DNA from: Planctomycetota bacterium
GTDB taxonomy: Bacteria; Planctomycetota; UBA8108; SXIK01
NCBI GenBank assembly: GCA_965223845.1
Contig: CBDCXR010000004.1
Span: 896,001-960,000, forward strand
DNA length: 64,000 nt
Direction of reading: 5' to 3'
Position 1 is the first letter of the stretch. Each line of letters opens with the position of its first letter. This document shows positions 51,781-63,438 of the stretch, in pieces. The position numbers and the translations under genes are program-made. The notes below the pieces were generated by a model that worked only from the letters and a program-made list of their open reading frames with translations, was not told where the DNA came from and did not search any database.

Positions 51781-54165
51781 TCACTGGCAGCTCACGTTCG
51801 TCGCGCATCCGAGAGCCGCGTCCACCGGGAAGCAGCCGTGGCCTTGCGCAAGACACGCCTCGCCTTGGAAGAGGAAGCGCGCGAGCGTGACGAGGTCGGC
51901 GATCGACCCCGCACCGTCACCCGACACATCGACGACCGCGAGGGTACCTTCCGGGCTTGCGCACGGGGGCACCGCGGCATCGCCGAGAATGAGGAACCCG
52001 GGGAAGAGGAGCCGGACACCGCAGATGATGTCGCTGATGTTGCGCTCACCGTCTTGGTTGCAGTCGCCCGCGAGCTGGCTGACGAGCTCTGGACACGGGT
52101 CGCCGAAGGCCTCCTTCGCCGCGATCGTCGCGGTGAACGTCGTACCGTCGGCGCCGTCGTTGATCGCATCGAGGCCGCCCGTCGCGAGGTTCCCCGCGCC
52201 GTCCGGATCGATCGCGAAGTCGACGATATCACCGACGGCCAAGGTCGTGTCCACCGCGTAAGGAACGGCGTTCCCGTCGGTGAGCATCTCCGCGATCTGC
52301 GTCCCGTTGACGAAGATCCGGCAGACGGTGCCGTCGCCGCCCGCGCTCGCGTTGTTCGCGACGCCGGAGATCTGAACGAGCCCGTCGTGCGTGCTCGTCC
52401 AGCGCCGCATCGCCCAGTGGACGTCGGGGTCCGTCTGGCCGTTCGCCGCCGGATGCCCGCCGGCGGCGCTGATCTCGGTCCACGGACCGTGGCTCACCGG
52501 CGCGCCGTTCGCGAGAAGGTCCCACTTGGTTCCGTCCCAGTGGTTCGCGGACGATTTCCAGCCTCCGACTTCCGGGTCGGCGCTGACGACGTCGCTTCCG
52601 TCGTTGAGGAAGAGGACGAAGTCACTCGTGTCGAACTGGCCGTTTTGGTTCTCGCCGTCGTCGCGGGCGTCGTAGTAGCCGTACTCCCAGCCGTTCTCGC
52701 CCTGAGTTCCCGTCGCCGACCAATCGGCCTGGGAATCGGCGATGGTCTGGAGGTTCGCGGCTTCGCACGGAATCTCGGGGTTGATCGCGAGGAACGTGAA
52801 GGATCCGTCCGCGCCGTCCGACGGATTGCCGTCGACGCCGACCGGTGTGAGGGCGAGGTCGACGATCGAGTTCGCCGAGAGATTCGTGTAATGGACGCGA
52901 TGCACGCCGGCCGGCGAGTTCGTCGCCACGCGGTCGATCTCGACGCCGTCGATGAAGAGGATCGCCGTCGTTCCTTGACCGCCCGTATTCTGGGCGCGGA
53001 CGGCCCAGTTGATTCCCACCGTCTGCTCGGCCGGCTCCGCCGGCGCCTGGTAGCGGCGGATCACCCAATGCTCGCCGCCGTTGTTGTCGCCGTTCGGGTG
53101 GACGAAGTCCTCGCGTAGGGTCGTCCAGGGCGCGTTCGTCGGCACGAGACGCCACTGTCCGTTCGGACCCTGATCCGCGCGCCAGTGATCTTCGAAGACG
53201 AACGGCATGAAGTCGCCGACCGCGTAGCCCTCTTCGGCATCCTCGCCAGGCACGTAGTAGCCGTTCGTCCAGCCGTTCGCGCCCTGCTCGCTGGAGAAAT
53301 CGATGGCCGAGTTCGGGTCACCGTCGCAGGCGTCGCCGTCGCCGTCGCCGTCGAAGTCGGCCTGGCCGGGATTCGCCACGCCGGGACAGTTGTCGCAGGC
53401 GTCGCCGAGACCGTCCGAGTCGGTGTCGGCCTGGTCGTCATTGCAGATCGTGGGGCAGTTGTCGATCGTGTCTGGCGTGCCGTCGCCGTCGGAGTCGAGG
53501 ATTTCGGTGTCCACCCAGAGCCGATTCCGCGAGCCGTCGCAGCCGTCGGTGAGGTCGGCGTCGGGGCCTGGGCTGAGGACGAGATCGACCACCTGGCCGG
53601 CGCTGAGACTGTAGACGAATCCCTTCGTGAAGCCCTCGCCGTCAGCGGCGCCGATCGAGACATCGTCCTCAATGACGCCGTCGACCAAGACGATGCCGCG
53701 AACGCCGTTGCCGCAGTTGACGTTCGCCTTCGACATCGACCAGAAGATCGTGACGTCGCCGGTGTGGTCGCTGGTCCAGCGCCTCACCGTGAGGTGGATT
53801 CCCCACGGGTCGGCGTTGTTCGAACCGTTCGGGTGGGTGTCCGTCTTGTTCATGAAGGTCCACGGCGCGGACGCTTCGCTCGTGAGATCGTAGACCTCAC
53901 CCGTCCAGTGGTTCCCGTCGGGTGCGACTCCGTCGGCCGGATCGCCGCGCGTAAACGGAATGAACTGCGCGGCATCGACCGACGCATTCACGTATCCGAA
54001 CGACCACTCGCCTGGCGCCGGTACCTCCGCCTGATTCTGCGGCGCGTCCCAGCCCGTCTCCGAGTCGGCGATGATGTCCGCCCGAACCGGAGTTGCGACG
54101 AGCGCGACCGCTAGCGCGACTCCGAGACCGGCGAGACGAAACAGATTTCGTGTACCCATAGTCAT
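51781..54165 (-). CDS. Secreted protein: three Trp-rich repeat domains + TSP3 Ca-binding repeats + dockerin-like tail
   Basis: GGAGG RBS, signal peptide (..VRA-D); DSDGDG..D..DNCP..N..Q.D TSP3 repeats; C-terminal AGDCNQDG..ISD..LF..C...DVSGDG. Confidence 0.85.
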   Translation of the reverse strand: MTMGTRNLFRLAGLGVALAVALVATPVRADIIADSETGWDAPQNQAEVPAPGEWSFGYVNASVDAAQFIPFTRGDPADGVAPDGNHWTGEVYDLTSEASAPWTFMNKTDTHPNGSNNADPWGIHLTVRRWTSDHTGDVTIFWSMSKANVNCGNGVRGIVLVDGVIEDDVSIGAADGEGFTKGFVYSLSAGQVVDLVLSPGPDADLTDGCDGSRNRLWVDTEILDSDGDGTPDTIDNCPTICNDDQADTDSDGLGDACDNCPGVANPGQADFDGDGDGDACDGDPNSAIDFSSEQGANGWTNGYYVPGEDAEEGYAVGDFMPFVFEDHWRADQGPNGQWRLVPTNAPWTTLREDFVHPNGDNNGGEHWVIRRYQAPAEPAEQTVGINWAVRAQNTGGQGTTAILFIDGVEIDRVATNSPAGVHRVHYTNLSANSIVDLALTPVGVDGNPSDGADGSFTFLAINPEIPCEAANLQTIADSQADWSATGTQGENGWEYGYYDARDDGENQNGQFDTSDFVLFLNDGSDVVSADPEVGGWKSSANHWDGTKWDLLANGAPVSHGPWTEISAAGGHPAANGQTDPDVHWAMRRWTSTHDGLVQISGVANNASAGGDGTVCRIFVNGTQIAEMLTDGNAVPYAVDTTLAVGDIVDFAIDPDGAGNLATGGLDAINDGADGTTFTATIAAKEAFGDPCPELVSQLAGDCNQDGERNISDIICGVRLLFPGFLILGDAAVPPCASPEGTLAVVDVSGDGAGSIADLVTLARFLFQGEACLAQGHGCFPVDAALGCATNVSCQ

Positions 54166-54542
54166 TGCACCTCCCAGCGCAACATGAGCGTCAACCCTCT
54201 GCGGGAGCCAAGGAGCGCCCGCTTTCCTCGCTACGGGCGCTTCTGCGCCCCCGTTCATTGTTCCTAGCCGCGAGCACACGAGCCGCTCTCGTCTCCGGTC
54301 ACTCGGATGGAGAACGTGCTCGATGAGGCGCGTTGGCGACGTGAATCGTGGATGAATCCACACCCTGAAGCTGCTCGGCGAATCCTCCGAGCGTCCACTT
54401 TCGACCCGTCGATTGTCATCATGGCGTCCGGGGATTTCTACAAAAAGGGCCGGCCGCGTCCGTTTTCCGCGCGCGTTTGGGGGCGGTACGGGTGCCGGTC
54501 GTGATCGGACTCCCGGCGGAGTCGTCTTGCGCCAGGTCCGAC

Positions 54543-57500
54543 TCACTCCGCGGCGAGCGGCTCGCGGTGAGGACGATTTGCCTCGTAGCCGGCGATGCGG
54601 TCGCGGACGGTCTCGGCGAGCGCGTCACCGGACCGCTGCTCGGCGATGGCGAGAGCCCGCCGGGCAAAGCGGAGCGCGGCTGCGAAATCACCCGCCTCGG
54701 CGTACGCCGCGCCGAGCGTGTCGAGGGGCCCGGCCGAGGAGTAGCGCGTGGCGCTCGCCGCCGTCTCGGCGTGTCGAACCGCTGCGCGACCGTCGCGAAT
54801 CGCCGCGTCGGGATGGGTCGCGAGCAACCAAGCGAGATCGTTGGCGGCGCGGTGAAGATCGGCTCTGAGTCGAAGGGCGCTTTCGTACTCGGCGATCGCA
54901 GCTCGGGCGTCGCCCGATCGGCGGAGCACTCCTCCGAGCGCGTAGTGAACGTCCGGTTGCCCGCCGTACTTCTCGAGTGTGGTGCGGAGGTGCGCGACCG
55001 CGGCGGCGCGATCGCCGCTTGCCTCGAGCGCGCCGCCGAGGTCGATCACCGCCGGAACGAGCTGCGGGTGGTAGGAGAGCGCCGCACGGAAGGACGACGC
55101 CGCGGCAAGATGATCGCCGCCTCGGACCGCGATCTGTCCGAGCAGATGGTGAACGTCGGCGAGCCGACGATTGCGTGCCGTCCCTTCGGGCGACGCCGCG
55201 CTCGGCGGGCCGGGATCCTCGGCGAGAAACTGCTCGAGGATCGCGCGCGCGTCCTCCGGGTACTCGCCCTCGAGATACGTGCGCGCGAGTGAGATCACGT
55301 TCGACACGAACGCGTCACCCGCCCAAATTCCCGGGAACGGCACCGAGAGATCGCGGAGCTCCTTGCCGCTCGCCGCGAGAGTCTTCGCATCGGCGAGAAT
55401 CTGGTCCTTTTCCACCGCTCCCTTGTAGACGACGGCGAGCCGTCGCTCGGCGTCGAGGAGGAAGCTCGACGGGAGCGGGAGCTGTCGCTCCCGGTAGATC
55501 GCAGCCTGCTGCAGGCCGTCGAGCGTCTCGACGAGAGCTTTGGGACCGATCCCCGCCGCGAACTCGACTCCGAGACGAGCGAGCATCGCGCGCGGTTTCG
55601 CCGGGTCGGTGGGCTCGCGCAGGCCGTCGACGTTGAGCGCGAGGAGAGCAATCCCCGCGGCCTCGAGCTCCTTCGCGGCCCCGGCGAGTGCGCGGAGCTC
55701 GACCGCGCAGGGACTGCACCAGGTTGCCCAGAGGAGAAGGAGCGTCGGTCGCGCCGGGAGGTTCGCGAGGGAAATCTCCCGACCGTCGAAACTCTCGTAG
55801 GCTCCGTCGACCTTCGGGCGATCCGACAGCCGGATGCGCGCCGCGTCGGTGAGCGGCGCTCCTTTTGGCGTCGATGAAGCTAGAGGAGAAGGCGGCTGGT
55901 TCGGCTCGACGGCTTCCGCTACTCCCGTCCCTTCCCGCAGACGGTGACGCGATCCGATCGCGACGCCGGTGAACGTCTCGCGGCGTACCGAGCCGGGCCA
56001 GCGGACGACGACGGACTCGACGCCTTCGGCTTCGCCCGTTCCGAAGTAGAGCCACTTTGTCGACTGACTGAGGTAGCCGTCGCCGGCGACCAGCGTCTTC
56101 GCGCGTTTCGCGGGCTCGACCCCGGCGAGCTCGATCTCGACGCGTGCACCGATCGCGTCGCGATTCGTTCCGCGGGCGGGATCGCCGAGGAGTCGGAGCG
56201 CGACGAATCGTCCGCGCGGCGCGGCGTCGTTCCGGAGGAGTCTCACCCGCGGACTCGTGCGTGAGGCGATCCAGAGGTCGACGTCACCGTCGCGGTCCCA
56301 ATCGCTCAGAGCGACCGTACGGCTGTCGTCGATGTGATCGAGTCCCGACGCCGCGGAGACGTCCGCGAACCGCGTGGCGCGCGTGTTGAGAAACGCGCAG
56401 TTTCGTTCCTTTCCGCTGAACGAGCGGCCCTTTCGAATGAGCTGCGCGAGCTCCTGCCACGCGTCCATGTAGCCGTCCAGAGGATCGCCCGCGTCCTCGC
56501 CGGCAGGGGTTTGCGACACGACCTGTCGCCAGTAGAAGCTTCACAAGTCGCCCGTGTCGTCGGGCTGTGTAATGAACCCGTTCGTGACGACGAGATCTTC
56601 CCAGCCGTCTGAGTTGAGATCGACGAACTTCGATCCCCAGGCCCAACGTCCGATGCTGACCGCGCTCGCGACGCTGACGTCCTCGAACGTACCGTCGCCG
56701 CGGTTTTGAAAGAGCGAGTTTCCCCGCGCATGCCGGCGGAGTTGCTTGCGGAATTCGCCCGAGCCGCCGGCGTGAAATCGGCTCTGCGTCGTGATGCGTC
56801 CCCCGGCAGAGGAGAACATGTTGCTGACGTAGAGGTCGGGGCGGCCGTCGTTGTTCGGGTCGCCCCAGCACACGGACATCCCCGGAGAGATGTCCTCGAC
56901 GCCCGCGGTCGCGGCGATGTCGCGAAAGTTCCCGCCGAGATTCTCGTAGAGGTTGTTGCGACCGAAATCGTTCGCGACGTAGAGGTCGAGATCGCCGTCG
57001 CCGTCGAAATCTTCCCACGCCGCCGCGTAGCTGAAGCGGCGATTGTTCTCGTCGAGACCGGCGCTCTTCGTCGCGTGGCGAAAGCGCCAGTTGCCGTCGT
57101 TTCTGAGGAGTACGTTCCGGCCGCCGTTGTTCGCATCGTGGTAGGGGACGGGACGCGCGAAGACGAGGTGACGATTCACTTTCGGCCGGCGGTTGTAGCA
57201 GCAGACGAATAGGTCGAGGTCGCCGTCCGAGTCGTAGTCCGCCGCCGCGAGCGAGTAGGGAATCGCCGCGGGGATGATCTCGGCCGAGCGGACCGCGAAC
57301 CTTCCCGTGCCGTCGCCGCGGCAAAGGTAGACGCCGCTCGAGACTCCGACCGCGAGGTCCTGGTGGCCGTCGCCGTCGAAGTCGACCGCGACTGCGCCGT
57401 GGGTGGAGTCGAGGCAGTTGACTCCCGATTGGGCGGACACGTCGCGAAGCGTGCCATCGGGCGACTGCAAGTAGAGCAGATTCGGCAGCCCACCGGGCTG

Positions 57501-58469
57501 ACAGACGTAGACGTCGTCGCGGTCGTCGCCGTTGAAGTCGGCGACGGCGAGGCCCTGCCAGCCGCCGATGTCGAGACCGTGCCGCGTCTCGATGCGCGCG
57601 GTCCAGTGATCGATCCCCGGGAGAACCTGAGTCGCGTAGCTCGGCGCGTTCGCGAAGACCGCCTCGGTACAGTCGGCGAAGAGTGGAGCCGGGCCTTTGC
57701 CGACCGTCTCCTCGTAATCGACGAGACGGAGCGCGGTGAGCCGGGGACGCTCCGCATCGGCGAGCGCCCAGTGGTGTTCCCACGTTGAGCGAACCTGGAG
57801 GAGGCCGCCCGCGGTTCGTCCGCTCGCTTGGAAATAGCTTTCCGCGCGGGCCGTCGCGCCCGAAATCTCCGTGCGGAAGAGCTTGCTCTTTACGTGCACG
57901 TCCGCGTCGATCGGCCACAACTGCGCGACGCCGGAGAGCACGGACGCGAGGTCCGTAGCGGCGGCCGGGGCGGTGTCGGCCGATCCGCGGCGAACTTCGA
58001 AGGCGGCGTCCGTGAATGCGACTGAGAGCACCGGCGGCCGGAGGGCGGTCACCTCGTAGGACGGCGCGACGAGACCCTGGACCTCGTCGGATCCCACGGC
58101 GCGTCCGCTCGTAGCGAGCGCCTCGAGCTCGTGGAGGCGATCCGCGATCGAGGCGCCCACGACTTCGCTCGTCCACCCGTCTCGATCGGCGGGTTCCGCC
58201 GGCGGTGCGTCCGGCACGCCGGAGATCACGGCGGGTGGCTCGTCGGGCGCGGTAGCCACCGACGTCTGGTTTGCCGTTCCCGGCGACGGCGCCGTCGCCG
58301 GAGAGGGGTCCGAGGACGGCGAGCACGCGGACCCGAAGATCGCCCAGGCGGCTAGGGCGATGGTCGCGAGACCGCTTCGGATCGCCACCGGACGGCGCCA
58401 GCCCGCAAACGCGCGCCCGACGGCTCCGGAAGGTTCTCTATTCCCTTGGAAAAGCACAAATCGAATCAT
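54543..58469 (-). CDS. Predicted single ~1308-aa selenoprotein: lipoprotein signal, FG-GAP propeller, ASPIC/UnbV, TlpA-like thioredoxin (WCSPC), TPRs; UGA at 56541-56543 proposed as Sec
   Basis: Two ORFs (56541..58499 and 54543..56519) share a frame; translation across the gap reads DDTGDL*SFYWRQVVSQTP; six FG-GAP repeats precede the UGA and the seventh follows it; SECIS-like hairpin 11 nt downstream. Both halves are clearly coding; the fusion is inferred. Confidence 0.75.
56513..56529 (-). promoter_or_regulatory. Putative bacterial SECIS element
   Basis: UGA-AGCUUCUACUG-GCGACA-GGUCG-UGUCGC: 11-nt spacer, perfect 6-bp stem, loop beginning GGU; shares CAGGUC with the E. coli fdhF SECIS apex. 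Confidence 0.7.
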
Positions 58470-58812
58470 AAGATTGCGATCCGACGGGTCGGTCGACATC
58501 GGGTTCTCACCGCGTACTGAGTTTCATCGCGAGAGCGTGCTCTCGACGGGTCGAAGTCCGGCGGCGAGGCGGCGCTTTCGCTGCGTTTCGTCTCGGGCTC
58601 GGGTGCGTGGCAAGCAGGCGGACCGTCGCTCTCGGAGGATCGTGAAGAGAAAACCACCGTGCGGAGTCGGGGCTGCGAACGCAGGCTGTACTTCGTCTCG
58701 CCGGGGCGCTGTCGCTCGGCTCGATGCGGCCGCCTCGGTTCCGGCCATCCCGGCATCCGCGACGGCGCGGCGATCGGCGGGGATTACCGTTTCACCACAA
58801 GAATCATCGTTC

Positions 58813-61800
58813 ATGCTCGAGCTTAGACGACCTCGCGGGCAGTTGCGACGGCGTACCCAACAGATTGTGTCCGGCGGTCGGCGGCGGTCGAACGGGAGAC
58901 GATCTCTCTGGTTCGTACTCGGCGTGCCCGCAGTGGTGCTCGTGAGCTTCGGTTCTCGACCGGTGCACGCAGATATCATCGCCGACTCGTCCGCCGATTG
59001 GTCGACCACCGGGACTCAGGGCGCCGGCGGCTGGTTTCACGGGTACTACAACCGCTCCACCGACGGGAACGGAACTTACCAGACGGGGGACTTCACGGCG
59101 TACACGAACTCCGCCGGCGCGGGAGGGGGAGCGGTCAGCCCCGACGGGAATCACTGGACCGGCTCGGCGTGGGACCTTCTCGACGAGGCATCCGGACCGT
59201 GGACGTTCTCCGCGTCCGAGGCGACCCATCCGAACGGGACGAACAACGGCGACGAGCACTGGACCATCCGGCGGTGGGTCAGCGACTTCGACGGCCCCGT
59301 GACGATCGGCTGGTCGACCGCGAAGTCGAACACGAACTGCGGGAACGGCGTCGGGGCACGCCTCTACTTGAACGGAGCTCTCATCGATTCGGCGGCGATC
59401 GGCTCGGGCGATGGGACCGGTGTCACCCGAGAGCTCGACCGCACGATTTCTGCCGGTGACGTCATCGATCTCGCGCTCACGCCTACGGGGCCGGACGGCT
59501 CGCCGAGCGATGGCTGCGACGGCTCGATCAATCGGCTTTGGATCGACGATCTCGTGAGCGATCTCGACGACGACGGGGTTCTCGACGGAGACGACAATTG
59601 CCCGCGCGATCCGAATCCCGGGCAAGCGGACGGCGACTCCGACGGCGTCGGCGACGTCTGCGACAACTGCGTCGACGAGCCCAATGAAGACCAGCGCGAT
59701 CGCGATCGGGACGGACTCGGCGACGCCTGTGACGAACCGCTGACACCCGATCATTTCGACGTCGTCATCAGTGAGATCCACTACAACCCGGACGACGGGA
59801 GCGAGCTCGAGTTCGTCGAGTTCTTCAACGCGGCCGACGCGGCGCTCGATCTAACCGGCTGGTCGATGACGGGCGCGGTGCGCTTCGTGTTTCCCGACGG
59901 AGCGTCGATCCCGCCGGGCGGGCACGTCGTCGTCTGCCGGAATTCCGGTGTGCTTTCGAGCACTTTCGGCCTCGATCGCACCGCGCTCTTCGAATGGGTC
60001 GCGGCGGCGCTCGACAACGATGGGGAGGAAGTCGTCCTCCTCGACGCGACGGGAGCGATCGTCGATTCCGTGCGCTACGACGATTCCTTGCCGTGGGATA
60101 TCGACGCCGACGGAGACGGCCCCTCGCTGCAGCGACTCTGCGTCGAAGGGGAATCCGAGAATCCGCAGAACTGGCTCGCAGACATCGGAAGCCCGCCGAC
60201 GCCGATGGGGGAAGTTCAGGTGCCGCAGTGTCCGCCGCCCGTTCTCCCGCCGCCCGAGATCGCGATCAACGAGATCTACTACCATCCGCCGGGGGACCAG
60301 GAGGAGCGCGAGTACGTCGAGCTCACCAACACCACGGCAGCGCCGATCGACCTTCTCGGGTACTGCTTCTCGCAAGGGTTCAGTTTCTGCTTCGATACGA
60401 GCACGGTGATCGAGCCGGGCGAGTTTCTCGTCGTTTGCCGCGACGAGGCCGCAGTGAGGAGCGCGTTCGGGATCACGAATACGATCGGGAACTTCGTCGG
60501 GCAGCTCTCGAACAGCGGCGAGCGCATCACGCTCCTCAAGCCGGATGGCACGCTCGCCGATTCCGTGCGTTACCGCGACGAGGACAAATGGAATATCGCG
60601 GCCGATGGGCTCGGATTCAGCCTCGAGAAGTACGTTCCGGACGCGACTTCGGATCAGCCGGCGAGCTGGACGGACAGCGGCGCCGCCGAAGGGGGCGGCG
60701 GTGGAGGCTGGGCGACGGCATCCGTCCGCGGGACCGCGACGAGCGATCGCGTCTACTTCTACATCGAGGGGCCGGGCGAGTTTCTCATCGATGACGTCTC
60801 GCTCGTCAACATCGCCGATCCCGATCGAAATCTGCTTCCGAACGGAGACTTCGACGGCGGAATTGCCGGCTGGAGCGGAAACGGGAACCACTCGGGGAGC
60901 ACCTACAACACCGAGAACGAAGCCCTCCACGTCATCTCGAGCGGAACGGGTACCGGGTCGTCGAACGCGGTTCGAGTCGAGGCGATCGAGGCGCTCGAGC
61001 GCTCGAACGTCACCTACGAGCTGAAGTTTTCGTACTTCCACGTCTCGGGGAGCAACGAGCTGGTGGCTCGGCTTTCGAGCTCGACGCCGAGTCGGGGGAT
61101 CTACTGGGCCCTCGTTGGAGGCGGAGGCGCGGGGAGTGTCAGTCCTGGTGCTCCGAACAACGCGCTGAGCACTGTCGTCCCGCCGTTCGCGACCGGCATC
61201 GGTCGCTTCCCGCGGGAGCCGTTTTCCGACGAAGCCGTCTGGCTCACGACGAAAGTCATCGGCGAGGCGACCGAGGTGGAGCTCGTCGTCGACCTCGACA
61301 CCGGTACGCAGGAGCTCGAGATGTTCGACGACGGCGTATCGAATGACGGAATCGCGGGCGACGGTGTTTACGGAGCGTCGGTCCCGCCGCAGCCGCACCA
61401 CTCGGTGGTGACGTTCAAGATCGTCGCGACGGGGCCCGGCGGACAGCGAACGAGCCCACCGCGCACGGATACGGAGCCCGTGCACGCCTATTACGTGAGC
61501 GACTACCAGCCGCCGTCGGATCTCCCCGTCTACACCATGATCCTTCCGACGAGCAGCCCGAGGTCATGGATCGCCGGTCTCAACTGCTCGACCTACCGCT
61601 CTTGCTCCTTTGCGGTCGGAGGAGACGTCTACTACGACGTCGGCATCCGTCGCCGCGGCGGAAGCGTTTGCGGCGACGGCGACGTGATCAAGAAGTACCT
61701 CAAGATGAAGTTCAACCGTGGGCACGAGTTCAAGGGCGTGCGGCGGATCAACTTCCAGAGCCTCTGGACGGACAAGTCGCTGATTCGGGAGAACCTCGCC

Positions 61801-63438
61801 TGGGACGTTTTCGAGGAGACCGGGAATCCCGACTGTTTCCACGATTTCGTTCGGCTTCACGCGAACGGCGATTACTTCGGCCTCTACGCGGAGTACGAGC
61901 ACCCGGACGCACGTTTTCTCGCGCGAAACGATCTCAATCCGGACGGCAACCTCTACAAGGCGACGGCTTCACGCGAGCAGCGAGACGGCTGGACTTACGA
62001 GAAGAAGACGAACGAGAGCACGGGAAATGCAGACCTCGTCGACTTTATTCACACGATGCACGACATCCCGACGAACCAGCTCGTGAGCTTCTTCGAGACG
62101 AACACCGAGCCGGACGTCATCATCGAATACCAGATGGCGCAGATCCTCACGAACAACCGTGACTATCCGCACAAGAATCACTACCTCTTTCACGACACCG
62201 AGAAGGGAGTCTGGTTCCCGACGGCGTGGGACATCGATCTCGTCTACGGAAAGCGCTGGGACGGGTCGTTCGAGGGCGTCCTCAACGACAAGATGGACAA
62301 CCCGGGCATCACGCCGTGGTACACGACGACGGTGCGCGGCGGGGGGATCGGAAACCATCTACTCGACAAGTTCTTCTCCCAGGCCGGGACGCACTTCCGC
62401 CGGGCCTACATCGTCCGGCTGTGGAACGCGATCCAAGAGAAGTACACGCTCGAGTACTACGACGGTCGCATCGACGAGTATCGCGCGCTTCTGTTCGAGG
62501 AGCAGCTCGAGGATATCGACGAGTGGGGCCGGTCTCGGGCGTCTGCGAACGACCCGACGGCTCCGGCGGAATTCGAGCCGAATCTCGAGCGCGTCCGCGA
62601 TCATGTTCGCATCCGCCGGAATTACCTGATCAACTACCTCCGGAATACGGAGGGCTTCGCGGGGAGCGACCGGCTGAAGATCACCGAGGTGATGTACAAC
62701 CCCCTCGGAGACGACCAGAGCGAATACATCGAGTTTTGGAACAACTCGGGTCGCTCGATCGACATTTCCGGCTGGTCCGTCAGAGGAGTCGGCGTCGAGA
62801 CCTTCACCTTCCCCGGCGGAACGGAAGTCGCGGACAACGAGGTGATCATCCTCGCGCGCAACCCCGCTCACTTCGTCGGAGTCTACGGCAATGTTGCGCG
62901 GACCTTCGGACCCTACACCGGGAACTTGAGCAACAGCGGCGAGGTGCTGCGTCTCCGAGACGACGGCGCGGGCTACGATGCGACCGTCGACTACCTCGAG
63001 TACGGGACGAGCGACCCCTGGCCGGGAGAGCCCGACGGGCTCGGTCACAGCCTCGAGCTGTTCAACGTCAGCGGAGACATCGACAACGACCGAGCGGAGA
63101 ACTGGCGCTCGTCCGTCTCGTTCGGCGGCTCGCCCGGCTTCGTTCATTTCGAGGGACAAGACGTGCCGCACTTCCGTCGCGGCAACTGCAACAACGATCA
63201 ACGGGTCGATATCACGGACGCGCTGGCGATCCTTCTCTATCTTTTCGCCGAACGGGAAGAGCCGCGTTGCATCGACGGTTGCGACGTGAACGGAAACGAG
63301 GGCGTCGCCATCGACGACGCGCTCGCACTCCTTCAGTATCTGTTCACGTCGCAGGGCTTCGTGATTCCGGCGCCCGATCCCGGCGACTGCGCACCGGCGC
63401 GAGAAGGCTTCTGTCAGCAGTCGAACTGCGTTTTGTGA
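58813..63438 (+). CDS. Secreted multidomain CotH kinase protein: Trp-rich domain, TSP3, LTDs, CBM-like domain, CotH, LTD, dockerin-like tail
   Basis: Signal ending VHA-D; TSP3 repeats; ISEIHYNP/INEIYYHP/ITEVMYNP LTDs; MFDDG..DG.AGDGVYGA; GIRRRGGS..KKYLKMKF, NRDYPHKNHYL, WFPTAWDIDL; FRRGNCN..ITDAL..CIDGCDVNG. Start uncertain. Confidence 0.88.
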   Translation: MLELRRPRGQLRRRTQQIVSGGRRRSNGRRSLWFVLGVPAVVLVSFGSRPVHADIIADSSADWSTTGTQGAGGWFHGYYNRSTDGNGTYQTGDFTAYTNSAGAGGGAVSPDGNHWTGSAWDLLDEASGPWTFSASEATHPNGTNNGDEHWTIRRWVSDFDGPVTIGWSTAKSNTNCGNGVGARLYLNGALIDSAAIGSGDGTGVTRELDRTISAGDVIDLALTPTGPDGSPSDGCDGSINRLWIDDLVSDLDDDGVLDGDDNCPRDPNPGQADGDSDGVGDVCDNCVDEPNEDQRDRDRDGLGDACDEPLTPDHFDVVISEIHYNPDDGSELEFVEFFNAADAALDLTGWSMTGAVRFVFPDGASIPPGGHVVVCRNSGVLSSTFGLDRTALFEWVAAALDNDGEEVVLLDATGAIVDSVRYDDSLPWDIDADGDGPSLQRLCVEGESENPQNWLADIGSPPTPMGEVQVPQCPPPVLPPPEIAINEIYYHPPGDQEEREYVELTNTTAAPIDLLGYCFSQGFSFCFDTSTVIEPGEFLVVCRDEAAVRSAFGITNTIGNFVGQLSNSGERITLLKPDGTLADSVRYRDEDKWNIAADGLGFSLEKYVPDATSDQPASWTDSGAAEGGGGGGWATASVRGTATSDRVYFYIEGPGEFLIDDVSLVNIADPDRNLLPNGDFDGGIAGWSGNGNHSGSTYNTENEALHVISSGTGTGSSNAVRVEAIEALERSNVTYELKFSYFHVSGSNELVARLSSSTPSRGIYWALVGGGGAGSVSPGAPNNALSTVVPPFATGIGRFPREPFSDEAVWLTTKVIGEATEVELVVDLDTGTQELEMFDDGVSNDGIAGDGVYGASVPPQPHHSVVTFKIVATGPGGQRTSPPRTDTEPVHAYYVSDYQPPSDLPVYTMILPTSSPRSWIAGLNCSTYRSCSFAVGGDVYYDVGIRRRGGSVCGDGDVIKKYLKMKFNRGHEFKGVRRINFQSLWTDKSLIRENLAWDVFEETGNPDCFHDFVRLHANGDYFGLYAEYEHPDARFLARNDLNPDGNLYKATASREQRDGWTYEKKTNESTGNADLVDFIHTMHDIPTNQLVSFFETNTEPDVIIEYQMAQILTNNRDYPHKNHYLFHDTEKGVWFPTAWDIDLVYGKRWDGSFEGVLNDKMDNPGITPWYTTTVRGGGIGNHLLDKFFSQAGTHFRRAYIVRLWNAIQEKYTLEYYDGRIDEYRALLFEEQLEDIDEWGRSRASANDPTAPAEFEPNLERVRDHVRIRRNYLINYLRNTEGFAGSDRLKITEVMYNPLGDDQSEYIEFWNNSGRSIDISGWSVRGVGVETFTFPGGTEVADNEVIILARNPAHFVGVYGNVARTFGPYTGNLSNSGEVLRLRDDGAGYDATVDYLEYGTSDPWPGEPDGLGHSLELFNVSGDIDNDRAENWRSSVSFGGSPGFVHFEGQDVPHFRRGNCNNDQRVDITDALAILLYLFAEREEPRCIDGCDVNGNEGVAIDDALALLQYLFTSQGFVIPAPDPGDCAPAREGFCQQSNCVL

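Follow-up and report, generated by a model that had tools for sequence, protein, structure and literature searches.

An in-frame UGA in the gene of a large, probably exported propeller protein of a Planctomycetota bacterium is very probably decoded as selenocysteine

This report concerns a gene on the minus strand of a 64,000-nucleotide stretch of DNA (the window, i.e. the whole stretch that was analysed; GenBank assembly GCA_965223845.1, contig CBDCXR010000004.1, positions 896,001 to 960,000) from the 7.93 Mb genome of a Planctomycetota bacterium. The listing of open reading frames (ORFs) presents the gene as two ORFs at 56541..58499 (652 amino acids, ATG start) and 54543..56519 (658 amino acids, GTG start). 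A preliminary description of the locus had stated that the two share one frame and are split by a single UGA plus seven sense codons, and this holds both in the ORF listing and in the sequence, where one TGA (56543-56541) is followed by seven sense codons up to the GTG. When the TGA is read as U, i.e. selenocysteine (Sec), a chain of 1318 residues results in which U is residue 653 counted from the ATG at 58499, in the context TNGFITQPDDTGDL-U-SFYWRQVVSQTP (...TGDL-U-SFYWRQVVSQ...). The preliminary description was thus right that the UGA lies within the frame, while its residue number (about 643) needs correction. The read-through gene, as delineated by the ORF listing, the read-through translation and Pfam matches, covers 54543..58499 on the minus strand and comprises 1318 codons and a terminal stop, which is also TGA. 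We report that the internal UGA (56541..56543, minus strand), for which the aligned column is TGA in 79 loci, is very probably decoded as Sec through the standard bacterial SelB/tRNA-Sec route, with a hairpin of the Sec insertion sequence (SECIS) type inside the ORF; the case for this reading is built on sequence comparison.

The domain order of the read-through gene is an N-terminal region, an FG-GAP propeller, a UnbV_ASPIC domain, a TlpA/ResA-like thioredoxin domain and tetratricopeptide repeats (TPRs), and all coordinates given for these features refer to the minus strand. Residues 34-59 (58323..58400), as read from the translation, constitute a putative export signal, WRRPVAIRSGLATIALAAWAIFGSAC, which is hydrophobic and has a Cys at its end. 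The N-termini of the paralogues in the same genome are comparable and lipobox-like, ending in LVGGC, AVGC or LASC, and judging from these sequences the protein is probably exported and either membrane-anchored or lipidated. The seven-bladed FG-GAP beta-propeller (about residues 300-745; 56265..57602; predicted by Pfam and AlphaFold2) has its seventh blade after the TGA, and all seven Dx[DN]xDG-type repeats quoted in the preliminary description were found, of which just DWDRDGDVD is encoded past the TGA and the other six ahead of it. It is followed by UnbV_ASPIC (residues 782-852; 55944..56156; Pfam PF07593, E 1.1e-13, 51.3 bits versus a cut-off of 23.4). Because blade 7 and the UnbV_ASPIC domain come after the UGA, the propeller fold is complete only with read-through. 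The TlpA/ResA-like thioredoxin-fold domain (residues 904-1022; 55434..55790; Pfam AhpC-TSA/Redoxin, with AhpC-TSA at 39.5 bits versus a cut-off of 26) carries in the translation a CSPC active-site motif (Cys928 and Cys931; 55707..55718) and then Glu934, and the C-terminal TPRs, matched by Pfam TPR families, occupy residues 1128-1291 (54627..55118). Among the NCBIfam models there is none for the family; the only matches, to TlpA, ResA and TPR models, are below threshold.

An AlphaFold2 (AF2) model of residues 285-1045 was computed with 49 homologues and has a mean predicted local distance difference test (pLDDT) score of 90.9 and a predicted template modelling (pTM) score of 0.91. In the numbering of the model, helices at 369-379 and 391-405 are followed by strands at 417-462. 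The two helices form an insert that separates blades 6 and 7 of the propeller, and Sec is the first residue of this insert, i.e. of helix 369-379. In this confident model Sec hence caps the N-terminus of a short helix that is inserted between the sixth and the seventh blade of a CRTAC1-like propeller. It is typical of redox sites that a reactive Cys or Sec occupies such an N-cap position. Using Foldseek, the top PDB match of the model is murine CRTAC1 (9etn_A, E 3.4e-24, TMt 0.71), and the thioredoxin domain of the model matches ResA and TlpA with TMt between 0.68 and 0.86.

Homologues of the read-through protein are frequent. In the protein database we found approximately 120 uninterrupted full-length homologues of about 1250 amino acids, and since they share the same architecture the single-chain form is the norm. 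A six-frame search of the genome itself revealed eight full-length paralogues, each of them with exactly one TGA in the 201-residue query region. Their core, i.e. propeller with U, UnbV_ASPIC and thioredoxin domain with CxxC, is constant among L074 to L080, while the surrounding architecture varies: L074 has additional N-terminal TPRs, and L079 and L080 have no TPRs. The stop of L080 is TAA and that of the other paralogues TGA. When the search was extended to a set of 41 genomes, to which this one belongs, each of the 65 top-ranking matches (E ≤ 2e-49) had one TGA and no other stop. The aligned codon was then checked column by column in 69 loci fetched from these 41 genomes, and was TGA in 62, Cys (TGC) in one and an ambiguous Ser in one, with the loop absent from the remaining five. 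A scan of other phyla, with one genome per species, added 80 loci, of which 17 have TGA and 39 a sense codon, the latter mostly in Acidobacteriota, while 24 have a gap or no coverage. Hence, 120 of the 149 loci have a codon at the position, and this is TGA in 79 and TAA or TAG in none. The TGA loci belong to Planctomycetota (including Phycisphaerae and Pirellulaceae), Verrucomicrobiota, two Acidobacteria and one Gemmatimonadetes, and some of them share just about 30% protein identity with the window protein.

The genome also encodes the components needed for Sec incorporation. With coordinates on contig G000:C4, we identified selA (453 bits; 7458164-7459255), selB (352.7 bits summed over two matches in frame; 7037323-7039215), selD (308 bits; 5317241-5318161) and one copy of tRNA-Sec with anticodon UCA (7438635-7438732). 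These genes are dispersed rather than organised in a single operon, with roughly 20 kb between tRNA-Sec and selA. The TGA form is present in 22 of the 41 genomes (40 relatives and this one) and all 22 have selA. Since 40 of the 41 have selA, its presence discriminates poorly within the class, and genomes from other phyla were therefore used: selA is present in all five with a TGA form, and sense-codon forms occur in three genomes with selA and in two where selA was not found. No TGA form was seen in a selA-less genome among the genomes searched, a result of limited power given that 40 of 41 relatives are selA-positive.

Downstream of the UGA lies the hairpin GCGACA-GGUCG-UGUCGC (56513..56529, minus strand), which is the minimum-free-energy fold of the 40 nucleotides after the TGA. 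It starts 11 nt and has its loop 17 nt after the UGA, and its position at 56529-56513 bears out the 11-nt spacing given in the preliminary description. A stem of at least 6 bp located 13-28 nt after the codon is present in 73 of the 79 TGA loci, whereas among the 20 homologues with a sense codon and a retained W-R motif just five have one. Most loops of the TGA loci read GGTCG (49 of 79) or GGTC (11), and in 53 loci the distance from the UGA to the start of the loop is 17 nt. For 77 distinct sequences, the six stem pairs are formed in 85.1% of the cells versus 72.8% after shuffling, and the covariation score of the hairpin is 0.286 versus 0.123; neither value was reached in any of 500 shuffles. 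The middle pair of the stem is AU in 30 cases, GC in 17, GU in 15, CG in five, UA in two and UG in one. Subfamilies with other peptides after Sec (ENVGRRS, AEFNxGAVAP and VEGVGRR) have stems of 6 to 7 bp (7 bp in the first two), GGUC caps and compensatory variants. These subfamilies are more informative than the counts, since conservation of the sequence coding for WRQVV cannot account for the hairpin in them.

The same genome offers an internal control. A crude genome-wide scan for TGA followed by a GGU-type hairpin gave 29 candidates and recovered seven of the eight paralogues, and nine candidates from outside the family were scanned with Pfam. Two of the nine looked real, six were without a family and one encodes an HlyD-family protein with all Pfam matches before the TGA. 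The first of the two is fdhA (L201; G000:C4:4982921-4985686), a standard selenoprotein gene which encodes a formate dehydrogenase alpha-type molybdopterin enzyme of 922 amino acids with 2Fe-2S and 4Fe-4S domains. It has an in-frame TGA and a hairpin, GGTCGCC-GGTCT-GGCGGCC, with the loop starting 18 nt from the TGA. The second (L203; G000:C4:6835803-6837026) encodes a DUF3179 protein; its in-frame TGA provides the U of the motif W-U-HLC (UxxC) and is followed by the hairpin TGGCGT-GGTCT-ACGCCA. DUF3179 is named among the known selenoprotein families in the text of a 2026 AEM review.

Decoding as Sec has to be weighed against three other explanations. First, the TGA might have arisen recently by nonsense mutation or through an error of assembly, or might mark a pseudogene, with no read-through. 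This could be argued from the many uninterrupted homologues in public databases in which a sense codon occupies the position and from a hairpin that is not significant on its own. We regard this as virtually impossible: with TGA at that very codon in eight paralogues and 79 loci from four phyla, down to about 30% identity, and no further stops or frameshifts near it, conservation refutes it in practice. It is also extremely unlikely that the locus comprises two genuine genes, a propeller fragment and a separately started protein, with the hairpin serving translational coupling or mRNA stability, even if a GTG follows seven codons past the TGA and TGA also ends the gene. The stop is always at one codon inside the propeller, and with blade 7 downstream the fold needs read-through; moreover, homologues that lack the interruption consist of a single chain, all 79 loci have TGA as the stop, and the form and the spacing of the hairpin match those of the fdhA SECIS of this genome. 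Finally, the UGA could be read through without Sec by a near-cognate tRNA that inserts Trp, Cys or Arg with stimulation by the hairpin. Homologues have Asp, Glu, Ser, Ala, Asn, Gly, Arg, His or Leu at the position, and as so many residues are tolerated the chemistry there is not obviously required, which fits this explanation. We nevertheless consider it highly unlikely since, among the genomes sampled, TGA forms occur just in those with selA (22 of 22 relatives and five of five from other phyla), the GGUC-capped stem at a fixed distance is a SelB-type signal as on fdhA here, and a functional-looking CxxC-x2-E site is kept in 61 of 62 Sec forms.

A number of observations do weigh against Sec, or against a catalytic role for it. 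The hairpin alone is not unusual for its composition (z = -0.62; 48 of 200 shuffles fold equally well), and an Rfam search with it returned no family at E ≤ 1. Hence the window sequence by itself proves nothing about the hairpin, and it is the comparative evidence that carries the case. A sense-codon homologue (L135; AAC, Asn) from a metagenome-assembled genome of an uncultured Acidobacteriota has a 10-bp hairpin, TTTGGCGGCA-GGT-TGTTGCCAAG, at the place of the SECIS, about 17 nt after the aligned AAC codon; it might be left over from a Sec codon that has since been lost, or have arisen by chance. Furthermore, Cys is present at the Sec position in just three of 134 non-Sec homologues (Cys-bearing homologues include L085, with TGC, P0024 and P0026). 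To our knowledge, nearly all known selenoproteins differ in this respect and have aligned Cys homologues; because an aligned Cys is almost absent here, homologues with Cys offer no basis from which to derive a catalytic role. Finally, the association between Sec and the CxxC motif fails phylogenetic control. Sec state changes nine times on the tree and there are just seven independent pairs, for which a sign test has a median p of 1; CxxC changes likewise in about 1.5 of the seven pairs, with no difference in about 5.4.

Taken together, Sec remains the favoured decoding of the UGA, and the proposal to this effect in the preliminary description is supported by the Sec machinery, the conservation of the codon, the covariation of the hairpin and a fold that depends on read-through. 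That description had named selA, selB, selC and selD as genes to look for, and selA, selB, selD and tRNA-Sec are all present. Likewise, the check for hairpin covariation that it called for gives compensatory changes and a covariation score beyond all 500 shuffles, and the concern that the TGA might be unique to this assembly is removed by the eight paralogues and the 79 loci. It had further asked whether the position is TGA, never TAA or TAG, or else Cys in homologues; the former holds (79 TGA versus no TAA or TAG, in four phyla), while Cys is rare, the residue in non-Sec homologues being mostly Asp, Glu, Ser or Ala, and also Asn.

To find residues that go with Sec, 79 Sec forms and 135 non-Sec forms were compared over all columns, the Sec column excluded. 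Among the columns that separate the two best are those of Cys928 (98% of Sec forms versus 16% of non-Sec forms), Cys931 (100% versus 30%) and Glu934 (87% versus 11%), which make up the CxxC-x2-E active site of the TlpA/ResA-like domain. The same comparison points to Cys701 (ERNC; 56397..56399, minus strand) as a candidate resolving cysteine, with Cys in 52 of 79 Sec forms (66%) versus 10 of 135 non-Sec forms (7%), and a column neighbouring it has Cys in 24 of 79 Sec forms versus none of 135. For the 190 rows that cover the motif, 61 have both Sec and CxxC, one has Sec without CxxC, 14 have CxxC without Sec and 114 have neither, and CxxC is present in all eight paralogues of this genome. We considered co-evolution of Sec and CxxC on the strength of this table, which is striking in its raw form, yet had to reject it because the independent-pairs test is not significant: in most independent pairs the closest non-Sec relative retains CxxC. 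Our claim is therefore limited to one direction, i.e. that Sec forms keep CxxC.

Several non-Sec homologues that bear CxxC (P0007-P0010, P0016, P0018, P0020, P0022, P0037, P0056 and P0105) have Glu, His, Ser, Arg, Gly or Leu at the Sec position, and codons for Arg, Gly, Ser and Leu are one base away from UGA. This hints, at the level of protein sequence, that Sec may have been lost by point mutation in these homologues.

With respect to function, a relay between the selenol and thiols, in which Sec cooperates with the fused CxxC domain, is a tentative proposal to which we give somewhat less than an even chance. Sec would act as a redox centre that reacts with an extracytoplasmic substrate and would be regenerated by the fused TlpA/ResA-like CxxC domain, possibly via a selenenylsulfide with Cys701/702. 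The CxxC domain would in turn be recharged with electrons from a membrane protein of the CcdA/DsbD type, and one DsbD_TM/CcdA gene is present in this genome. The TPR region might recruit a partner or the substrate. In non-Sec homologues, with Asp, Glu, Ser or Ala at the Sec position and a CxxC that has mostly decayed, the redox chemistry would have been lost.

As far as our searches show, the recoding mechanism is canonical while the protein family is uncatalogued. Kim et al. 2016 (PLoS One, PMC4807772) mention selenoprotein candidates of planctomycetes P1 and P2 in general terms, and in the main text neither UnbV nor FG-GAP occurs, the supplementary tables being outside this check. Searches of the literature for a link between selenoproteins or selenocysteine and FG-GAP, UnbV, ASPIC or CRTAC1 gave nothing relevant beyond that paper. 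None of the terms FG-GAP, ASPIC, UnbV and propeller occurs in the main text of the AEM review, the deep-Sep paper of 2025 or the BSepDB paper of 2026, their supplementary family lists again being outside this check, and PF07593, PF13517 and PF01839 were not found in the text of the AEM review, including its Pfam-numbered family table. The family thus appears to represent barely documented bacterial selenoproteins, which are unusual in that the scaffold is a propeller with a reductase fused to it, that counterparts with Cys are nearly lacking and that one genome has eight paralogues. The texts of the deep-Sep paper and the AEM review describe discovery pipelines that require Cys homologues; because the aligned residue in non-Sec homologues of the present family is almost never Cys, pipelines built on Sec/Cys pairs would miss it, and the case reveals this blind spot.

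More broadly, we see about an even chance that these proteins form a large class of extracytoplasmic selenoenzymes in which the selenol is carried by a beta-propeller instead of a thioredoxin-type fold and served by a fused TlpA-like reductase, with essentially no Cys counterpart ("Sec or nothing"): a lineage that abandons Sec would accept any residue at the position and allow the CxxC to decay. In many Planctomycetota and Verrucomicrobiota no other selenoprotein family would then be as prominent, and searches for Sec/Cys pairs would have missed it. If the Sec reading is right, annotation routinely splits the genes of a common family of large exported proteins in two, and counts of selenoproteins are too low for Planctomycetota, Verrucomicrobiota and some Acidobacteria. 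In the present genome the eight family genes would join fdhA and the DUF3179 gene as selenoprotein genes. The family would also allow selenium chemistry to be tested in an extracytoplasmic setting, on a scaffold with kinship to that of CRTAC1 of vertebrates.

Two large ORFs lie next to the selenoprotein gene. An ORF of 921 amino acids (window positions 51781-54546, minus strand) overlaps the end of the selenoprotein gene by 4 nt with its start, and because of this overlap the two are probably co-transcribed. It encodes repeated modules of about 220 amino acids, Asp-rich repeats of the thrombospondin type 3-like kind and a Cys-rich C-terminal domain, and paralogous modules are found at window positions 58960-59670 and past 63715. 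We considered this ORF as a conserved partner and rejected it: homologues lie nearby, but none adjoins the other seven paralogues, except for a short match to the C-terminal domain near one of them. A divergent ORF of 1692 amino acids (window positions 58360-63438, plus strand) combines three lamin-tail domains with a CotH kinase domain and ends in a dockerin-like region; it has modules in common with the 921-amino-acid ORF.

Comparison with known systems places the recoding signal and the protein in different company. Genes with a SECIS inside the ORF, e.g. the archetype fdhF of E. coli and fdhA of this genome, resemble the window gene in having a UGA followed by a GC-rich stem and a GGUC-type loop at 17-18 nt. 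In the SECIS of E. coli fdhF, the upper stem-loop lies some 11 nt from the UGA, contains a bulged U and is capped by GGUC. The window hairpin likewise starts at 11 nt and has GGUC in its loop, but its perfect 6-bp stem lacks the bulge. Also, unlike the products of fdhF and fdhA, the window protein is not a molybdopterin enzyme.

The protein itself resembles CRTAC1/ASPIC-UnbV proteins, with which it shares the seven-bladed FG-GAP propeller and UnbV_ASPIC (Pfam PF13517, PF01839 and PF07593, all above their cut-offs), while the sequence alignment with CRTAC1 is weak and does not cover the Sec region. Unlike CRTAC1, the window protein has a fused thioredoxin-like domain and TPRs; we know of no Sec in CRTAC1 and of no established molecular function for it. 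With TlpA/ResA/DsbE oxidoreductases the window protein shares the thioredoxin fold, the CxxC motif and a Glu three residues past the second Cys, here as a domain within a 1318-residue protein. This domain stays below the NCBIfam cut-offs for TlpA (49.5 bits versus 230) and ResA (33.4 versus 170) and is related to TlpA/ResA, not an orthologue. It also gives a faint NCBIfam match to the MsrA/B fusion model PRK14018 (E 0.0096). PilB of Neisseria is an exported fusion of thioredoxin and MsrA/B domains, and although the window protein, unlike PilB, has no Msr domain, the layout of PilB-type proteins may be analogous, with a DsbE/TlpA-like domain that recycles the redox domain to which it is fused.

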